Shown here: positions 6,153 through 16,669 of the stretch, piece by piece | Position numbering within the stretch: position 1 is the stretch's first letter | Layout of the letters: the number at the start of each line of letters is the position of its first letter | Assembly (NCBI GenBank): GCA_963828165.1 | Contig: CAWHDR010000001.1 | Location: 1,088,001-1,152,000 of the forward strand | DNA from: an uncultured Chloroflexia bacterium | GTDB lineage: Bacteria; Chloroflexota; Limnocylindria; Limnocylindrales; CSP1-4 | Length of the DNA: 64,000 bases | Direction: 5' to 3' | Made by a program: the position numbers and the translations under genes | The notes under the pieces: model-generated | The model's input: the letters and a program-made list of their open reading frames with translations, nothing else | What the model was told of the DNA's origin: nothing | Databases searched by the model: none

Positions 6153-6332
6153 TCACGCGGCTGCGCCCACGCGCTTGAGCCGCCTGACGACGGCGAGGGT
6201 GAGCCTGGCGCGCCACGGTCGGGCGGGCTGTCGCTCGACGGCGGTGGTCTTCATCAGCCGGCCGCCGTCGGCTTCATGCCGCAGTTCCTGCAACCGCTCC
6301 GTTCCCAACAGTTCCATCGCGTAACCGGTCAT
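6153..6332 (-). CDS. 59-aa small protein (absent from ORF track)
   Basis: GGAGG RBS; MTGYAMELLGTERLQELRHEADGGRLMKTTAVERQPARPWRARLTLAVVRRLKRVGAAA*. Confidence 0.6.
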   Translation of the reverse strand: MTGYAMELLGTERLQELRHEADGGRLMKTTAVERQPARPWRARLTLAVVRRLKRVGAAA

Positions 6333-7715: not shown

Positions 7716-7791
7716 GCGCCTGTAGCTCAGTGGATAGAGCGTCGGCCTCCGGAGCCGAAGGTCGCAGGTTCGAATCCTGTCGGGCGCGCCA
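7716..7791 (+). tRNA. tRNA-Arg(CCG)
   Basis: Cloverleaf: acceptor GCGCCTG/CGGGCGC, anticodon loop CT-CCG-GA, GGTTCGAATCC T-arm, encoded CCA. Confidence 0.97.
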
Positions 7792-7909
7792 TTACAACCT
7801 GGGGTAGGGCGATGGCCAGCCCACGGTCGTACGCGGCAGTCGTGAGGCGAGCGCTGACGAACCTCGGGCCCGCGACGAGGATCCGCTCGTAGACAGCGTG
7901 CACCAAGTC
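7727..7909 (-). pseudogene. Probable C-terminal remnant of a site-specific recombinase reading through attL
   Basis: DLVHAVYERILVAGPRFVSARLTTAAYDRGLAIALPQVVMARPTGFEPATFGSGGRRSIH*; upstream part missing; position and helix-strand pattern resemble large serine recombinase tails. Confidence 0.5.
7776..7796 (+). repeat. attL core (21-bp direct repeat)
   Basis: CCTGTCGGGCGCGCCATTACA, identical to 16414-16434. Confidence 0.9.
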
Positions 7910-7966
7910 AATACCGCAGCGATAGCCGTCCTGGCAGCCGTCAGGGCGGCTCTCTTGTCTCGGTCG

Positions 7967-8245
7967 TCAGAAGTCGCGATACCGCCAGTGGACTTCGCCG
8001 CGCTCCGGAGCTAGACGTGAAAGCCGTACCAGCCACACGAGTCCCAGGACGATCCCGGCCCCACCGATGTACGGCAGGAGCGCCACCCACCCCCATCCCG
8101 CGTAGAACATCGGCTCACCTATGGTCCCGGGCTTAGCGACCAAGACGATTGCCAAGACCACGGGCGCCAGGAAGCCAATAGTGAGTTCTAGGCGGATCGC
8201 GGCCCCCGCGCGGTCCAGGCGTCGCTGGCGTTCCTCGTATTCCAT
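7967..8245 (-). CDS. Small 2-TM membrane protein
   Basis: Two hydrophobic helices; TACGGT-N6-ATG leaderless start. Confidence 0.65.
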   Translation of the reverse strand: MEYEERQRRLDRAGAAIRLELTIGFLAPVVLAIVLVAKPGTIGEPMFYAGWGWVALLPYIGGAGIVLGLVWLVRLSRLAPERGEVHWRYRDF

Positions 8246-8426
8246 GCCGGCACCGTACGCCCCGCGGTCAAGGAGGCCGACCCTGAGTCGTTCGACGTCG
8301 AGGCGTAGGCCGCGTCACCGGGCGCGGCACTGCAACGCCCAATTGACGACAAGCGGTGGTCCACGACTTTCGCTGCGCCGGCAGAGATTCCCAAACTGTG
8401 GGCACCGTAAGCGAGGGGTCGTCGGG

Positions 8427-8930
8427 ATGGCCTATTGGGATTCCCAGCCAAATCGCACCAGGCTCATCGTCGCCGCGATTCTGCTCGGCCTCGGCCTGGG
8501 CGGGTTCTTCGATGGCATCGTCCTACATCAGATTCTGCAATGGCACCACATGGTGAGCACACCGACCCCGCCGAATACGCTGGAGAACTTGGAGCTGAAC
8601 ACGCTGGGGGACGGGATTTTCCATGCCGCGACGTGGCTCCTGACCCTCACCGGCGTTCTTGTCCTGACGACCTCGAACGGCGCACGCCACCAGGAAGAGG
8701 GGGGCCGCACGCTAAGTGGCGGGATGCTCGTGGGTTGGGGATCGTTCAACGTGGTCGAAGGACTGGTCGACCATCACCTCTTGGGGCTCCATCATGTTCG
8801 CCCGGGTCCCGACGAGCTCGTCTATGACGTTGGCTTCCTGATCTGGGGCGGCATCATGCTTCTGGTCGGCGTCGCACTCATCCGCCGGGCTCGTCAGTCA
8901 GCGCCGGCTGGTCCAGCATCCCGGAACTGA
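8427..8930 (+). CDS. DUF2243 membrane protein
   Basis: GLGGFFDGIVLHQILQWHHM, DGIFHA, FNVVEGLVDHHLLGLHHV. Confidence 0.88.
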   Translation: MAYWDSQPNRTRLIVAAILLGLGLGGFFDGIVLHQILQWHHMVSTPTPPNTLENLELNTLGDGIFHAATWLLTLTGVLVLTTSNGARHQEEGGRTLSGGMLVGWGSFNVVEGLVDHHLLGLHHVRPGPDELVYDVGFLIWGGIMLLVGVALIRRARQSAPAGPASRN

Positions 8931-9238
8931 CCCCCGAGAAGAGCTCGACCGCGCACAGCGGACTAGGGGGAGTGCCTTATCGACGGGCCCCCTCACGGAG
9001 GGCACTTACCCAGCCCCCCGGCTACGCAGGGGGAAGGACGATCCAGTTAGGGGCAACTCGTGGATTGGCCAGTCTGACTGGCGCGACCGGGGCAGACGCC
9101 GCGTGGCCACTCAACGAAAGCGCCCTTGATCACACGTCACGGGTTGAGCTCGGGCCAGTCCAGGCGCGCCGTTCCTCCCATGAATGGACGCTATTCAGTC
9201 ATCGTGTGAGCCACCTTTCGAGTGGCTCGTTAGCGCGG

Positions 9239-12200
9239 TCATGGACCGGCCGTAATCACCCTGACCTCGTCCATTCCATTGCCGACTTGGAATTGGATGG
9301 TCATGGATTCTCCATCCGCGTGGATCGTGATCAATTCATCGTTTGCGTTGCCAGCCGGGAGGAAGAAATCCGCGCCTCGCGCTGGCCAAGCGTGGGGTAG
9401 GCGGTGCCGGACGCGCCGAGGAAGTCCGAGGCGTCCAGGCTCGCGTCTGATGTGACTACGGCGAGGATCCGCTCTCCGAAATCGACGGTACCCCGGTAGT
9501 ACTTGAAGTCGCCGGTCTCGAAGCAGCAGTACTCGCCCGGCCGGTCCGCGTGCAAGATGTACGAGCGGATCGCGTTTGCGGGCGCAAGAGTGCCGCCAGG
9601 GGGCGGCGACCGCGGGTGGATGTCATGTCCGCTCCTAGAGTCGGCGGGACTAGCACGTCGACCGTCAGCGGGGCGACGTTCGGACATCCTGTGCACGTTG
9701 CTCGAATATCAGCGCAACGTCATCGGCGACACTCTCCCCGCTATCAGAGCACGTCTTGTAGGACGCCGCCTGGCCAGCCTTCAACACACACGTCTCGGTG
9801 TCGAACGCGTTCAGCTTGAGAGACGGTGGCGGATCGATGTGCTCGAGGTTGATGGACGCAGACACGTCCACTTCGGCGTCGGCGGTTGCGACGATCCGCA
9901 CCTGGTCGGTGCCTCCACCCACCTGGAGCGCAGCGCCAGGGTCTGGGCATCCAGCCAGGCGACGGCATCCTTGGGGTTGATGTAAGCGTTTCCGGGCTGC
10001 TTCTTTAGATTGACCTCAGTTCCGCGGAAGGCCTGGTCGGGAAGGAGCGTCCCGGACGGCCCTAGGACATCGCTGGCGCGCAGAGTGTCGTCACGCACGA
10101 TGACGCCGAGGATGCTTCTGGGCAAGCTTCACTAGGACATCGCGGACAAGATACTGGCGTCTGCTGGCGTGTATGCCTGATCGCGTGAACGAGGAAGCTT
10201 CGCAGGCCTGCCCTGCAAGATCATCGCGGCGACAACGCTGGGTCGCTGTTAGCGCAGGCGAATAGGTGCCTGGGATTCGATGTCGACTTCAGGTCTCGCA
10301 CAAGATTGTGCTGTCCGGCCTGCTCGCTGAGGAGCGCAGCGTTTCGCGTCGTCCTATCCGGCGTGTGTCGGCCGGTCTGCTCGAGCGAGCACGCTTCATC
10401 GATGCTGTAGATCGCGTTACACGAAATGACGAACAGCGATGGCACTTGATTGCCGGCGCGGTAGACTGCCTGACCTCAACGATGTGTTCCCAGCCGGGAT
10501 CCGGCCAGAGAGGCGCTCAGGGTGACGGGGTCTTGCAGGGCAAGGGGCACCAGTCCCCGCCATCGATCCTGTAGTCGCCGCCGGCCACGCCGGAGAGCGC
10601 GTCAAACACGGCGGCTTCGAGGGCCCAACCTCCGAGGTCGACAGAGCGATGGCAGGCTGATCGCGGTTCAGCGGCGGGGTCATGTCAATGCTTATGTAGT
10701 CGACGCGGTGGCACAGTTGCCGCGGGTCGCAGCTCGCCTGACTCTCGTACTCCCGTTCGCGCCTCTGTCGCGGCGATGTGTCTGCGGGTCTGTCGGCGCG
10801 CCAGAGCTCGGGTCGGCATCCGTAACCTGCCAGTCGATGGTGACGGCGCGCGGTACCAGCCTGCGGGATTTTCCGCGCGGTCTCGAACGGGACCACGACG
10901 GGAGCTGCGTATCGGTAGCGCGGTCGCGGACATACAGCTGATAGATGCGGAGGGCGCTCGACCGGCACTTGATGTGAAGGACGCGTAACGGCGTCGTCAC
11001 TGAGGTCGACGCTTGATGACTGATCAGGCTGCTGCGCTCGGTCGCCGCTCCATCGCTGATCACCTCTCGCAGTCGGTGGGACGCAGGCCAAAGAGGAACG
11101 TATTCGTTCCTCCAGGTGCGGCGACCAGATCGGGTGTTGGCGGGGAAGACGACATACCGCGTCCGGCGTCACTCGCGAGTAATACTATGGCGTTCGACTG
11201 CGTGCGTCGGGCCTGGCATCGATCCGGACGGTGGTATCGGCATCGCGGTCTCGGAGAAAGATGTCGCGCGCGCGTTGGTGTCATTGCTAACAAGAGGCGC
11301 GAACGTTTCGACGACAACGAGGCTCCGTCGTCGTGACACGCCCGTGGCACCGTACGAGGATCGGAGAAGGTGTCGGCCGCTGACGTTGCCGGTTGCGACG
11401 CTCACGCGATCAGTGATACCGCCAGCCACGTCGCGCAGGAAAACGTCGCGTTGCGTTGGTATCTACGTCAACGACATCATCCGCCTCGCTGATGAAGCCA
11501 ACAAAGTTTCCGTTGGCGCTCGCGAAACGCAACCACACGTCCCCGCTAGGGAGCTGCCCGTCGTTGGTCAGACCTACGGCTTCGATCGTGTGCTCGCGAG
11601 GTCCATGCGGAAGACGCCGTAATACGGACTCGCCGCTTGCCCGTCGAAGAGGTCATCGCGACCGGAGTCGAAGATGAGGTACCGCGCATCGTCACTGAGG
11701 ATCGCTGTGCTCGGTTCGACATCGATGAAGCGGGTCGTACCGGCCGTTCGATCTCTGAGGTACAGGTTGTACCGGAACGCCGGGACCGGCTCGTCGACGA
11801 GGTTTGAGGCAACAGACGAGAAGGCAACGAAGCGGCCGTCGGCGGAAATGTCCTGCAGGAACGAAAGACCGTCCGCCGGGCCTCCCGTCTTCGAGACGCT
11901 CACGAGCTCGACGACTCCAGTGGCCACATGCTTGATGAAGACGTCGTCTTGGCCATTCGTATCAGCATCGTCGGCAAGCAGATTGGATGCCGACGAAGTG
12001 AAAGTGATAAGGGACCCGCCATCCGCCAGGCGACCGCCGATGGTGTGCCCGTTGCCGGCCGTGCCATCCTCCGCGCGGCTAGCCATGACCGTAGTGCCAT
12101 CCGCCGCGAGGACTAGCTGACCCGAACCCGTGAGCGGCGAGGCGCTCCACGCGAGGGGAACCGTTACGAGCAGCGTCGCAAGGAGCACGCGTGCCCGTAC

Positions 12201-12266
12201 GAGCCCGTGCCCACGGATGCCCCAATGTCCGGCAATCTCATCGGAGGACGCAGAGTCAGGACGCAT
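9239..12266 (-). pseudogene. Multiply frameshifted secreted TolB/PD40 beta-propeller protein with duplicated C-terminal beta domain
   Basis: Signal peptide, SASNLLADDADTNGQDDVF and ISADGRFVAFSSVASNLV repeats continuing in shifting frames; ends ...MDEVRVITAGP* at 9239. Confidence 0.65.
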
Positions 12267-12528
12267 GCATAGCCCTCGCTATCCGCGGACGGAGTGTCTG
12301 ATCAAGGGCAATCCAGGGACGCGGGACTGCAAGCCTAAATGCAGGGTCCCAACCCGTCGTCATCCAAATGCACCAGACCACAACGGCCTCACGTCGAGGG
12401 GCCACGCGCCGGATGCCCCAAGGTTACGGACAACCGGCTCCGGAGCGTCGCGGCGAACTGGACCGTCGCCGAAAATGGAGAGAGCTGCCGAGGCACCATC
12501 CGCTCATGGTGTGCTGTTGCGTCGGCAC

Positions 12529-13368
12529 CTAGTCCGCGTGCCCGGGAACGTCCTCCACGACGACGACGAAGTCGCCATACCGGTCACGGAGCGTTGAAGC
12601 GATGGCGTCCGTGAGGCCCTGGACGCCGACCTCGACCGTGTTCTTGAGGGTGTCTGGGCCGGTCGAGACAACGTCGATCCCCTCGGCCTCGAGGTCATCC
12701 CACTCGTGAGTGATCCGGTCCGTTAGCGCGGTGAGCTCCGCCCAGGAGCGCTTGGTCCAGACGTACCGCACCTCCACTCCGTCGCGCTCGAGGCAGCGCG
12801 CCAGGCGTAGGGTCTCGGTTCTACCCTCGACGATCGACAGGACGTGCCGCTGGCTCCCGGGCGGGTCCTTCCATATCCCGCCGAAGAGGTCCGGACGGCC
12901 AACCGAAGACCAAAAGGCGATGGGTGCGGCGCTATCGATGTAGAGGCCGTAGGTCCGCAACGCGTCCACCTCCGCGGGCCGCAGTGCGATCCCGATGAGC
13001 TCGATGTCCGATCGCGGATCGGCGATCGCCGCGTCGATGGCCGCGTCGGTCTTCCCGAACTCCGGATACGACAAGTCCACGCCGTTGCGGATATTGGTCG
13101 CCGCGATGCGGTCGAGGCGTTGCAGGTGGTCACATTCCTGGTCGGACGGTCGCGGCGGGGCTTCGAGGGCTTCCCCGACGGATGGCATCGGCGTGTCCGT
13201 CGGGTCGGCCTTCGCGGTGGCTCGAACGATCGCGGGGCTGGCCGACGGGTTCGTTTGGTTGCTAGACCCGGCGCGGGAGACATTGGTCGGGTCCCCGCCA
13301 GCCGGCCGGGAACAGGCTATCGCCGCGAACGCGATAGCCACGACCAGGATCAGCAGAACCGCTCGCAC
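12529..13368 (-). CDS. Hypothetical lipoprotein
   Basis: Lipobox-like AIAC; C-terminus resembles protease pro-domain-like fold (NTVEVGV); start uncertain. Confidence 0.65.
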   Translation of the reverse strand: MRAVLLILVVAIAFAAIACSRPAGGDPTNVSRAGSSNQTNPSASPAIVRATAKADPTDTPMPSVGEALEAPPRPSDQECDHLQRLDRIAATNIRNGVDLSYPEFGKTDAAIDAAIADPRSDIELIGIALRPAEVDALRTYGLYIDSAAPIAFWSSVGRPDLFGGIWKDPPGSQRHVLSIVEGRTETLRLARCLERDGVEVRYVWTKRSWAELTALTDRITHEWDDLEAEGIDVVSTGPDTLKNTVEVGVQGLTDAIASTLRDRYGDFVVVVEDVPGHAD

Positions 13369-13768
13369 AACCACTTCGGACTCCGGGGGGTGGGACGGTA
13401 CGCATCGCATCGTTGTGACTCCGCTCAGGACGAAGCCCAAGCCGCAGGCCCTGCCGGCCGTCGACATCGCTCCCTTGAAGCCAAGCGTCCTGGGCTCCGA
13501 ACGCACGCGACGGCACTAGTTGCAGGAGCGACCGATCGTACGACCGTCACCCCAAGGTCGCATTGTGTCAATTCGCCCGTCGGACACACCGCGGTTTCAA
13601 TGCCACGGTAGACACGATTGACTCATGGTGTGGTGGGCGACGGAGCCGCCAATGGCCCTGCGCGCACCCAGGCGGCCGCGATCGTTTGCGCCCCTCGACC
13701 GTCGCCGAGTTCTTGTGTATGCCTTCGATTTCGCGGGCTCGACGAGACCGCAGAAGGCGAAGCCGCGC

Positions 13769-15245
13769 CTACCGGGAGGGCCAGACGGGCTGCCAGGCGA
13801 ACGCGCCGGGCGGCGCCTCGGTCTCGAGCACGAACGCGCCGTCGGCGATGCGACGTCGGTCGTGGCCGTCGCGGTTCACAACCCACACCCCCTGATCGCT
13901 AGATTGGAGGTCCACGACATAGCCGACCGCCCGGCTGTTCGGTGCCCAGCCTGACGGGAAGAACTCGGGCAGATCTCGGACCAACACATGCCTCTCCCCG
14001 TCGGCGACATCCACGACTGAGAGCGTCGAGCCGCTGAAGAGCCAGGCGGACCGGTCGGGAGCGAGGTCTGTTCGGAAGGCCGAGATCTCGTCGGGCGTGA
14101 CGCCCATGGGTCCGATGTCGCGGTCTGTCCCGGCGTCGACCGGGCGACCGATGAAGCGCTCCGCGGGCGCGTCGGCGATGAGGATCGTTTCGTCGTCGAC
14201 GAAGCCGAACGGGGAGTCATCGAAGTCCGCCGCCCACTCACCGTTGGCGAGGGGCACCGGATGGAGCTGGGCGTCGTCAAGAGAGCCCGCCACGATTCCC
14301 GCGGCGCGGGGCATCGTTCCGTGTCGCGGCCACGATGCGTCCGCCCGAATCGGACCACGTGACAGCACTCAGGTGACAGACGCAGCCGGACGCGATCGGC
14401 CGGGCGGGGCCACCGGTCCGCGAGACGATCCAGATGTTGGTTGCCTCGGGCACGTGCGTATTGAGGCGCTCGGGAACGGCGAGCATCGATCCGTCGGGAG
14501 ACCAACTCGGGCGTCCAGGAAGGAAGGAGTCGTCGTGGGACAGCAGCGGTCCCGCGAGGCCAGCTTCTGACCAGACGTAGAGTTCCCTGACCTCGCCGGG
14601 CTCAGTGCCTACGACGACAAAGGCGAGCGCGCGTCCATCGGGCGACCAGACCAGCGGCCCGCGGAATGGGATCCAGTCGCGGGGACCCTCGGGCGTGGCG
14701 GAGCGCTGCGGGCTCGCGTAGTCCGCGAATCGGGCGAGGGAGCAGATGGCGCCGCTCTCGGGGTCGATGAGGAAGAGCTCCGGAACTTCGCCGCTTCCCC
14801 AGATGGCGATCCAGCCGCTCTCGGCCGTACTCGGAGACGCTGGGGCTGGGCCGGCCGTCCACGTCGTCGTGGTTCGCGCGGCGGCCGCCTGCGCGTCGGT
14901 GCAGGAGAACGTGCTTGACATGACATCGGGCGCGGGCGCCATCGACGGCCCAAATCGGGGCGGGAGGGAAGGCGGGTCCGCCTGTCGCTGGTTCCAGGAG
15001 CCGACGAGCAACCCGCCGGCGAAGACCGCAGCTCCGAGCAGGGCGGCCACAACGGCCACGCGAAGGATCATCCGTGTGTCCCTGAACTTCGGACGACGCC
15101 AGACGACCGTGGGTCGCTGGGTTGGCTGGCTTCCCAACGCGGCCGCACGCCGTACGATCGCCATAGAGTCGACCGGCCGGCGAGGCCCGGCGTAGTCATC
15201 GAGCGCGACCGTGAGTCGCCGCTCGAATCTGCTCAGCTCACTCAT
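13769..15245 (-). CDS. Single-TM protein with TolB-like/PD40 repeats (putative anti-sigma), one frameshift near 14300
   Basis: FERRL N-terminus, TM helix, WSPDG repeats, AWQP end split over two ORFs; overlaps ECF sigma stop. Confidence 0.65.
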
Positions 15246-15786
15246 CGCCGAGCTCCTTCTCAAGTCGATGGAGCAGCCGCGCCAGACGGGCGCGGGTGCC
15301 TGAAGGTGTTAGTCCGGTCGCGTACGCAAGCTCCGTCGCATCGAAGCCAGCGACGTAGCGCATCGCCAGCAGCGCACGGTCCTCTGGCCGGAGGCGGGCA
15401 ACGGCGTTTCGGAGATCGATCGCGAGGATCGCGCTCGTCGCACTGTCCTCGGCGGCCACGTCGTGGAGCTGATCGACGGTGATCTCGACCAGCGCGCGGC
15501 GAGAGCGCGACCGAACGATCTGGCGAGCTTCGTTCACGGCAATCGACACGAGCCAGGCCCGCAGACGAGCAGGGTCGCGGACTGACCCCAGTTTCAACCA
15601 GGCCTTCGACCAGGCCGCGTCGACGGCCTCGTCCGCGATCGCCTGGTTCCCGACGACCACGACGCAGACGCGGCGCATGTCTTCGTGATGCGCACCGACG
15701 ATCGACGCAAACGCTCTCTCGTCGCCGGCCACTGCCGACGCCAGCAGGCGCTCAATCTCACCGGTCGGGCTGGCCACCGCTGTCAT
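15238..15786 (-). CDS. ECF RNA polymerase sigma factor
   Basis: Region 2 AWLVSIAVNEAR; region 4 LRPEDRALLAMRY...GTRARLAR. Confidence 0.88.
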   Translation of the reverse strand: MTAVASPTGEIERLLASAVAGDERAFASIVGAHHEDMRRVCVVVVGNQAIADEAVDAAWSKAWLKLGSVRDPARLRAWLVSIAVNEARQIVRSRSRRALVEITVDQLHDVAAEDSATSAILAIDLRNAVARLRPEDRALLAMRYVAGFDATELAYATGLTPSGTRARLARLLHRLEKELGDE

Positions 15787-16124
15787 ATCTCATGGATGCC
15801 GCCCGGCGGGCAACTGATTCGGTGACGCGAGATGACGTGGACGAAAGGATCCACAGCCTGTCCAGCCTTATCCAGCGGAATCGGGACGTCGTCGGCCGAT
15901 CGTCGGATCACTGGCCCCGCGCCATTGTCCCGCGAGGCGGCCGAGCCGGAGCCCGTCGAGGAGCCGATCCAGAAGCGCGCCATGCGTGGACCCAAGCCCA
16001 TCACGCCGGCGGCCGGCTCGCAGGGCGACGCCGGATAGAACCACCCCCGCCAATCGATCTTCAGGCCCTGGGCGCCAGCCCGGGGCCCTTCTCCGTTCGG
16101 TCGCGTCGTTGGCCACGGTCGGGC

Positions 16125-16430
16125 TCATCGCGCGACGTGAGCCAACGTGGGCGCCCACGGGCCAGCCTCGTCGGATCCCCGATCAGCGACCGGGATAATT
16201 CGCGAAACTCGGCCGCGTGCACACAGTCGGGAGGCGCGGTCAGCGGGAAGGTGCGTCTCCACATGGGCTACCCCGCCCCGGTCGGTCGACGCACCCTTCG
16301 TCGAGTTGCACGAGCGGCACAGCACGGCGGTGTTGCCGATGTCGAACGGCGCCGCGACCCACTCGCCGCGGCCCTCGATCGGGATCTCGTAGGTTGCTAA
16401 CGCGCGCCCAACACCTGTCGGGCGCGCCAT
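16125..16430 (-). pseudogene. Chimeric remnant: attP-side recombinase tail fused to HNH endonuclease C-terminus
   Basis: MARPTG-VGRALATYEIPIEGRGEWVAA then PFDIGNTAVLCRSCNSTKG (HNH-type N..LCxxCNxxKG). Confidence 0.55.
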
Positions 16431-16434
16431 TACA
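16414..16434 (+). repeat. attR core (21-bp direct repeat)
   Basis: Identical to 7776-7796. Confidence 0.9.
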
Positions 16435-16669
16435 GATGTTCTATTTCGACGCTAGTCCCCTCCGCCTGCGTCGATGAGTCGGCCCTCGACGAGGGGGCCT
16501 CTTCGGATCCCACGCATCGACTACGAGCGGTCACGTGCGCGAGCCGAGGGCTTCCCGGCCGACCCTGGTTGCTGTCCAGTCGCGTTCGCGCGACCCTAAG
16601 CGCGCGGACTGGAACGGTCCTAGGAGCCGGGCGCGGATCGCGTGACCGGTATGCCGAAGGAGGTGCCCA

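Follow-up and report, generated by a model that had tools for sequence, protein, structure and literature searches.

Remains of a phage-like element at tRNA-Arg(CCG) suggest a large serine recombinase gene that spans attP and has two alternative C-terminal tails

The locus

The DNA studied here, which we call the window, is a stretch of 64 kb from an uncultured Chloroflexia bacterium (assembly GCA_963828165.1, contig CAWHDR010000001.1, positions 1,088,001 to 1,152,000). At the 3' end of its tRNA-Arg(CCG) gene lies an island of 8.6 kb, between two copies of a 21-bp core. We propose, with a probability of about 0.8, that this island is a degraded phage-like integrative element inserted at tRNA-Arg(CCG) by a large serine recombinase (LSR), that the LSR gene spans the attachment site attP and has two alternative tails, and that the tail of the free form is under selection. 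The features on which the proposal rests are the following.

7716-7791, plus strand: tRNA-Arg(CCG), the sole tRNA detected (ARAGORN)
7727-7909, minus strand: 3' remnant of the LSR gene (list of open reading frames; tblastn against P0001)
7776-7796: attL copy of the 21-bp core (exact repeat, family D17)
16350-16430, minus strand: remnant of the free-form tail (MARPTGVGRALATYEIPIEGRGEWVAA, 27 codons; tblastn against P0115 residues 487-513, 92.6% identity)
16402-16427: inner arms of the att palindrome at attR (GCGCGCCCAACA / CC / TGTCGGGCGCGC; 12-nt arms, 92% complementary, 2 nt apart)
16414-16434: attR copy of the 21-bp core (exact repeat, family D17)
16435-16447, plus strand: native 3' flank of the tRNA gene and, beyond the core, right arm of attB (follows the tRNA without a break in the empty sites of genomes G112 and G106)

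The core is an exact direct repeat of 21 nt (CCTGTCGGGCGCGCCATTACA) detected by a repeat search, and there is no third copy in the window when up to three mismatches are allowed. The attL copy consists of the final 16 nt of tRNA-Arg(CCG) and 5 further nt; since these 16 nt lie inside the att core, they were donated by the element at integration. The 8.6-kb segment is a real insertion, because two of the 131 genomes of the genus have an empty site (G112 with no mismatch, G106 with two) in which the end of the tRNA runs straight into the sequence found to the right of attR in the window (97% identity over 34 nt between L158 and window positions 16414-16447).

Minus-strand open reading frames (ORFs) cross both copies of the core in one common frame (MARPTG). 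The attL ORF (7727..7906) encodes 59 aa and has the C-terminus ...PQVVMARPTGFEPATFGSGGRRSIH before the stop; the attR ORF (16125..16430) encodes 101 aa and starts with MARPTGVGRALATYEIPIEGRGEWVAA. The first-pass annotation of this DNA had reported the core repeat and the two ORFs in the same frame, and both ORFs read exactly as it quoted them. We do not count the shared frame as evidence, because it has a one-in-three chance of occurring and because long ORFs are expected at the local GC content of 61-70%; the case beyond chance therefore rests on the comparison with relatives.

The recombinase and its intact relatives

At attL, positions 7797-7909 of the minus strand encode the last genuine LSR residues (..DLVHAVYERILVAGPRFVSARLTTAAYDRGLAIALPQVV), of which 37 codons remain, and positions 7730-7796 encode MARPTG followed by 15 residues read from the antisense strand of the tRNA, up to the stop at 7727-7729. 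The first-pass annotation had noted a resemblance to an LSR tail, and the attL peptide is indeed 86.7% identical, over 60 aa, to residues 437-496 of P0001, the intact LSR of genome G007 (tblastn). Pfam gave no match on the 59-aa ORF, so that this ORF is identified only through its relatives. The 115 nt that follow the tRNA are kept beside tRNA-Arg(CCG) in sister genomes, with 76-87% identity (L017-L023). When the minus strand beside the tRNA is translated at 12 loci, 11 of them show at least the last codons of the same protein entering the tRNA, with the common end ...ALALPxxV-x-ARPTG-FEPATFGSGGRRSIH and a stop; the only locus without this LSR end is L025, and L018 shifts frame within the 600 nt read.

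The intact LSR of G007 (L017:1852-3342, minus strand) is a protein of 496 aa that ends in the antisense tRNA. It bears out two expectations of the first-pass annotation: it has a resolvase N-terminal domain (PF00239, E 8.5e-10, residues 19-162, Pfam), and in intact elements the integrase ORF does not stop before the att site. The integrated LSR genes remain full length (496-500 aa), with all domains present. In our alignment A1, S29 in the motif R-E-S-T is invariant in 62 sequences and would be the serine nucleophile; the residues C299, C301, H320 and C324 of the zinc ribbon are also invariant. The AlphaFold2 model of a homologue, P0115 (mean pLDDT 73), matches the full-length integrases of phiC31, SPbeta and Bxb1 (E 1.1e-14 to 1.1e-11 over 540-615 columns) and the C-terminal domain of the LI integrase (E 6.3e-8) in Foldseek searches.

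The catalytic portion of the LSR is deleted here, as had been proposed: tblastn detects no LSR body in the window or in the whole assembly, where the only traces are the remnants in the window and a second decayed remnant elsewhere. This second copy (G000:C1:160619-160882 and 163185-163253, the latter covered by L029) consists of an LSR C-terminus 46% identical to P0001 residues 387-473, at 2.3 kb from a remnant of tail plus core; ARAGORN found no tRNA in G000:C1 158001-164500.

An attachment site inside the gene and two classes of tails

Full-length LSRs with a second type of tail are encoded on two viral contigs from IMG/VR, L030 (42 kb, LSR of 518 aa) and L031 (21 kb, LSR of 512 aa), and no tRNA was found in either contig. 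In L030, the attP has two arms of 23 nt that are 78% complementary and flank a dinucleotide reading GG on the coding strand, and it lies wholly inside the ORF; it is an imperfect palindrome of about 48 bp in the 3' end of the LSR gene, whose central GG belongs to a glycine codon. A short attP (about 40-50 bp) with imperfect inverted arms around a 2-bp centre, as serine integrases have, is thus found in L030, and the same arrangement is seen at the attR of the window, where the centre of the palindrome is the CC at 16414-16415; the predicted crossover at attL is the CC at 7776-7777. The central dinucleotide is probably the crossover, with the exchange taking place directly after the glycine of ARPTG, which coincides with the point where the two classes of tails diverge; the identity of attP and attB over 16-21 bp is compatible with other crossover positions.

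Since attP lies wholly inside the 3' end of the LSR gene, the free and the integrated elements encode different tails. We propose that the LSR inserts the element into the 3' end of tRNA-Arg(CCG) and that the window keeps both ends of such an element in a degraded state. In the free or circular element, the LSR would end in ...ARPTG-VGRALATYEIPIEGRDEWLAAARRLA; after integration, the gene would end in ...ARPTG-FEPATFGSGGRRSIH, taken from the antisense strand of the tRNA.

A search of a collection of 5.8 billion proteins gave 554 matches at E <= 0.001, and we sorted the 120 best of these by their C-terminus.

77 of 120: antisense tRNA-Arg(CCG) tail
13 of 120: antisense tails of two other tRNAs (ASPAGFEPATFRLEGGCSVH; ARPEGFEPPT.)
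16 of 120: ARPTG followed by VGRAL.TY.IPIEGRDEW...A or a recognisable variant (..PIEG.. tail; VGRALATYEIPIEGRDEWLAAARRLA)
5 of 120: ARPTVSEFTT-like junctions
9 of 120: truncated or otherwise odd C-terminus

Both of the tails that the first-pass annotation had read at attL and attR are therefore conserved among relatives (77 and 16 of the 120 best homologues). We considered the ARPTVSEFTT-like ends as a possible short-tailed free form and rejected this idea, since they mark tandem junctions: a different element (e.g. L168:658-686) uses this end of the tRNA, and its arm yields the junction peptide ARPTVSEFTT. Among the nine metagenome stretches of this type that were fetched (L161-L169), the GCGCGCCCGACAG core is missing in three (L161, L164, L165); the remaining ones have the arm of a different element and a helix-turn-helix gene at the same tRNA-Arg(CCG) end, and this arm follows an LSR end or remnant in four (L162, L163, L166, L167) and a non-LSR flank in two. 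In L168, the flank before the arm is tRNA-flank-like. The ARPTVSEFTT pattern had no matches in viral contigs.

Related tails are also found at larger distances. A second search gave 761 cluster representatives at E <= 1e-10, and of the 150 best, the 41 with a length of at least 440 aa were taken as a distant set (32-55% identity, and 71% for one frameshifted entry). By eye, related tails (I-P-I-x-G-R-x-E-W...SA, such as IPIVGRREWL..SA) were counted in 10 of the 41, and ends antisense to the T loop of various tRNAs in 13; the tail layout is therefore old and general in this clade.

The gene order of L031 (prim-pol/D5 helicase, LSR, DNA methylase, small terminase subunit) can be compared with that of G007, in which an element of 36.5 kb is bounded by the intact LSR. 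The gene adjoining attR in G007 is a DNA methylase, as is the gene downstream of the LSR in L031; circularisation of the 36.5-kb segment would produce this order. In L031, the pair of methylase and small terminase genes occurs twice, in inverted orientation (7799-9524, plus strand, and 12258-13512, minus strand); this inverted duplication could be real or result from the assembly.

Selection on the free-form tail

To collect copies of the free-form tail, one genome per species was scanned for DNA able to encode IPIEGRDEW. At least 119 stretches were found, almost all of them in metagenome-assembled genomes of Chloroflexota/Limnocylindria. We analysed 137 sites of this survey, 132 of which are unique. 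A recognisable core is present at 119 of the 132 unique sites and is in frame at 106 of these 119; a stop codon follows 16-18 codons past the first I at 115 of the 132. An LSR C-terminus lies upstream in frame at 29 sites (free-form or tandem junctions), and a non-LSR flank at 79 sites (plain attR). The survey selected the sites on the nine IPIEGRDEW codons, whose conservation is therefore by construction, and selection was judged on the codons outside the search motif.

In 73 unique copies of 100 nt, the non-consensus frequency in codons 24-27 and 31 (LAAA, A) is 0.33-0.41 at third positions and does not exceed 0.15 at the other two. Right after the crossover, the V and G codons behave similarly (0.33 and 0.27 at the third position, versus 0.01-0.03). 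The mean pairwise identity falls from 0.80 over the last eight codons and the stop to 0.43 over the following 30 nt, so that the conserved block ends at the stop codon. The final codon of the tail is Ala in 71 of the 73 copies, mostly preceded by Leu. At the protein level, 14 free-form proteins with an overall identity of 67-79% all share I504, E505, G506, R507, E509, W510 and A513, and the predicted coiled-coil region of these proteins is far more variable than the tail. The first-pass annotation would have lost its case if the attR-side frame had been unconserved; the free-form tail has, on the contrary, the conservation pattern of a coding sequence, which argues that it is probably a selected part of the protein.

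Predicted docking of the tail

In the AlphaFold2 monomer model of P0115, the tail contains a helix at 507-517. We also modelled the tail (residues 487-518) as a separate chain against residues 170-486, using alignments that we built ourselves. The complex model supports binding, with a score of 0.73 versus 0.07 for the best of three controls; at least 77% of the contacts agree between the runs, and the pLDDT of the partner is at least 58. In the calibration of the score, 58 of the 80 solved complexes attained the mark, and so did 2 of the 110 mismatched pairs. In the complex model, tail residues 498-507, 510-511 and 514 contact residues 463-468, 473, 478-486, 341-345 and 361-362, and the confident pairs put I502-E505 against the strand 463-468 and residues 478-483. 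Residues 341-345 and 361-362 belong to the helices that come after the zinc ribbon and before a long helical pair, taken to be the coiled coil. Among the contacted residues, alignment A1 shows no or almost no variation at L343, A344, Q345, V464, R467, L468, A478, L481, P482 and V485. In this prediction, the zinc-ribbon DNA-binding domain gains a strand and a helix from the free-form tail, next to the helices leading to the coiled coil.

Decay of the window's copy and other elements at the same site

The remaining features of the island are the following.

7797-16413: island body, 8617 bp, with no recombinase body (Pfam scan of 25 ORFs)
8121-8930, plus strand: DUF2243 membrane protein (Pfam)
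14277-15263, minus strand: PD40 beta-propeller protein (Pfam)
15238-15786, minus strand: ECF sigma factor (Pfam)
16272-16349, minus strand: fragment of an HNH endonuclease gene (PFDIGNTAVLCRSCNSTKGAST..; BLASTP against the HNH protein of genome G004)

The tail remnant at attR ends after EWVAA, its last five codons and the stop being lost. Codons 28-52 of the attR ORF match the C-terminal part of the G004 HNH protein (21 of 26 residues identical, 81%, BLASTP), which is itself recognised by the Pfam HNH model at 1.2e-9; the attR ORF of the window has weak matches to this model (0.01, below the cut-off). A deletion has fused the HNH fragment in frame with the tail remnant, and the ORF beyond these codons is read-through. 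The first-pass annotation had assigned the whole attR-side frame to the recombinase, which is right for codons 1-27 and wrong from codon 28 onwards. The opposite reading, in which YEIPIEGRGE would be the D-H part of an HNH motif, was rejected because this peptide recurs at sites that have no HNH and because the true HNH homology starts at codon 28. In G004, the HNH gene is complete and borders on another LSR remnant. What the window contains is a fossil copy, whose LSR body is deleted and whose tail is fused to an HNH fragment; it has no functional interest by itself.

A GC-rich, hairpin-like stretch of about 57 nt lies at 7913-7969, just past the stop of a 92-aa ORF (7967..8245, minus strand), and recurs at G000:C5:107611-107668 (93%) and C1:22481-22540 (84%).

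Repeated integration and decay seem to have accumulated at the tRNA-Arg(CCG) site. Arrays of two or three att cores in tandem, each followed by an LSR-tail remnant, are found downstream of one tRNA-Arg(CCG) in L026 (G010:C14), L027 (G007:C6) and L024 (G017:C2). Extra copies of the 5' half of tRNA-Arg(CCG), of 45-46 nt, are found a few kb upstream of the tRNA gene, and are 100% identical in G004; they suggest that another class of elements integrates in the 5' or anticodon part of this tRNA. Their positions are given here, with those of the RHS region of the G007 element.

L021 (G004:C149), 6241-6285 and 8732-8777: 5'-half tRNA copies
L019, 1290-1345: 5'-half tRNA copy
L028, 11208-11270: 5'-half tRNA copy
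L017, 8041-11861, and L159, 3471-5087: RHS region of the G007 element

The 36.5-kb element of G007 encodes RHS-repeat proteins, one with DUF6531 and another with an eCIS-core match, and besides these a separate tyrosine integrase, at L159:6407-7378. This element is either composite or rich in cargo.

Function of the tail and alternative explanations

The sequences show how the gene is laid out, that there are two classes of tails, that the free-form tail is conserved in the manner of a coding sequence and that the window's copy has decayed; from there, we infer that the two isoforms would differ in activity. Tentatively, the free-form tail may be needed for the integrative reaction, or tune it, so that the isoform encoded by the prophage would behave differently. 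A role of the tail in setting the direction of the reaction is a reasonable guess by analogy, since directionality factors act on the same domain and on the coiled coil. The more far-reaching idea that the exchange of tails is itself the directionality control, with the free form integrating and the prophage form being released for, or restricted to, excision in a process that needs no separate factor, seems to us quite unlikely at present.

Several points weigh against the proposal as a whole. Regarding the assignment of the protein, the Pfam Recombinase and zinc-ribbon models do not match the intact G007 protein at E <= 0.01, and a PDB sequence search with the profile of the LSR family returned two matches, which cover catalytic domains only. 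Regarding the docking, the tail has no confident placement in the AlphaFold2 monomer of P0115 (block means 43-55); the contacts near residues 481-486 are trivial, because the two chains follow each other in a single polypeptide; and the complex-score mark is calibrated only roughly, because our own alignments were used. Regarding selection, besides the circularity of the nine motif codons mentioned above, many of the surveyed copies are recent relatives and not independent samples. Codons 8-13 (CGC GCG TTA GCA ACC TAC) are almost invariant at all three positions; they are the outer part of an att arm and hence constrained as DNA, they include codons that we take to be rare at this GC content, and the fixed spacing from core to tail may be a DNA constraint too. 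Last, nothing in the window's copy is functional, and the DUF2243, PD40 and ECF sigma factor genes are not phage-like cargo, so that the 8.6-kb interior may be composite.

The main rival is a role in stability, which we nevertheless consider unlikely: the free-form tail would be a degradation signal or a stabiliser, and integration would alter the half-life of the enzyme rather than its chemistry. The nearly constant terminal Ala, usually after Leu, and the ends of the distant relatives, which are mostly ..SA or ..TA, are consistent with this idea, and tagged integrases and repressors are documented in the available text on integration-dependent immunity (PMC3694055). However, the most conserved residues, IPIEGRDEW, are 9-17 residues away from the end, and a simple C-terminal degron needs none of them; the complex model also places the tail on a folded domain. 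We rejected the idea of a degron of the host's own type because the tag encoded by the host tmRNA ends in ..LALAA (by reading of the alignment), whereas the tail ends in ..RRLA. This tmRNA was missed by ARAGORN in this genome and was detected with Rfam (RF00023, 119.6 bits) at L170:1501-1876 (G000:C1:1250558-1250933, minus strand). It is improbable that the read-through is incidental, that is, that attP overlaps the end of the gene by chance, that the peptide past ARPTG has no role and that its conservation results from the need for att-arm DNA. The invariance of codons 8-13 fits with this explanation, as the 23-nt arm covers about eight codons after the glycine, and so does the low AlphaFold2 confidence in the tail. 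On the contrary, the conserved block extends about 50 nt past this arm with a three-base periodicity and ends exactly at the conserved stop, and the motif persists in proteins that are only 35-55% identical to the query.

Two other explanations assign the conserved sequence to a different gene. The 32 codons from an NTG in the core to the stop could be translated from attR in lysogens as a small protein, such as a directionality factor, which appears very improbable. The residue before ARPTG is M, L or V at 86 of 93 readable sites, and the peptide is predicted to bind the recombinase as a chain of its own; but this L may be encoded by CTG, which is no start codon, K, R or T precede ARPTG in some full-length proteins, the sequence upstream at attR is the tRNA's own flank (no search for a promoter or ribosome site was made there), and the frame is continuous with the LSR in all intact free-form genes seen. 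A gene on the plus strand that ends at a TAG inside the arm is hardly credible: its frame is antisense to that of the tail, with coinciding wobble positions, so that it would give the same third-position pattern, and it is open in the window (ORF 16147..16392, plus strand), but the similarity between copies stops at the minus-strand stop (0.80 to 0.43), which leaves no conserved body for such a gene, and the neighbours in L030, L031 and G007 are on the LSR strand.

If the tail of this LSR family is part of the enzyme, as we propose, a conserved and apparently docked tail that is swapped on integration is a testable natural isoform switch, for which hundreds of family members are available. Serine integrases are prized tools in genome engineering for their strictly one-way action, which lasts until it is reversed by a separate factor, and how the direction is set is an active structural question; if the exchange of tails did control directionality, a large clade of serine integrases that target tRNAs would do without a directionality factor of the separate kind. 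There are also consequences for annotation: integrated LSR genes end in antisense-tRNA residues, and pipelines that require PF07508 (such as that in the available text of PMC10083194) would probably miss the family, since this model gave no match.

Comparison with known systems

The first-pass annotation had cited SSV1-type integrases and the BPs repressor as precedents; both are related layouts, but the closest one, IntP/IntX of phage Mx8, was left out. In Mx8, according to the accessible text of PMC6070905, attP sits inside the integrase's coding sequence, and integration supplies a new 3' end while the enzyme stays active; the Islander paper also mentions that the Mx8 and SSV integrases extend across attP (PMC4383910). 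As in Mx8, the attP core is inside the integrase ORF here and the C-terminus is replaced on integration. The likeness is in the layout only, since the Mx8 enzyme is a tyrosine recombinase, whereas the present family has a resolvase domain, the LSR fold and a short palindromic attP.

In the integration-dependent immunity systems of the mycobacteriophages BPs and Brujita and of the corynephage CyranoPS, a phage gene also has attP in its 3' end, with a tRNA as the target, the C-terminus differs between the free and the integrated states, and this change acts as a switch. In these systems, it is the repressor that is split, the integrase is a tyrosine recombinase and an ssrA-like tag is lost; here, the LSR itself is split and a conserved motif of 26 residues is lost. 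The tagged repressor of the BPs type has no equivalent in the present family, whose tail ends in ..RRLA and not like the ..LALAA tag of the host tmRNA.

The 'suicidal' integrases of the SSV type also have the recombination site within their own recombinase gene (PMC8371274). According to the accessible part of this review, they are tyrosine recombinases whose gene is fragmented, so that the enzyme is lost, and such self-fragmenting integrases are exclusive to archaea; in the LSR family, the last 26 residues are swapped and all domains stay intact.

Regarding serine integrases, the Islander paper stated in 2014 that they were not known to target tRNA genes (PMC4383910). Among tycheposons, 27 of 937 elements carry an LSR, and the accessible text of the preprint (10.1101/2020.12.28.424599) does not mention an att site inside the gene. 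Our literature search, which left subscription journals and supplements mostly outside, found no publication in which the ORF of a serine integrase is described as spanning attP.

The LSR family has the same fold as the integrases of phiC31, Bxb1, A118/LI and SPbeta (SprA), with a resolvase domain, a zinc ribbon and a short palindromic attP. In the canonical examples, the gene does not contain attP, which in phage JC1, for instance, is found 41 bp upstream of gp1, and no change of isoform is described in the text available. The directionality factors of LSRs act at the second DNA-binding domain and at the coiled coil (PMC12286644, in its accessible part), and this target region is near the predicted docking place of the tail. 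As far as the accessible sources go, the family described here would extend to bacterial serine recombinases a layout that has been reported for tyrosine integrases (Mx8, SSV) and for repressors (BPs).

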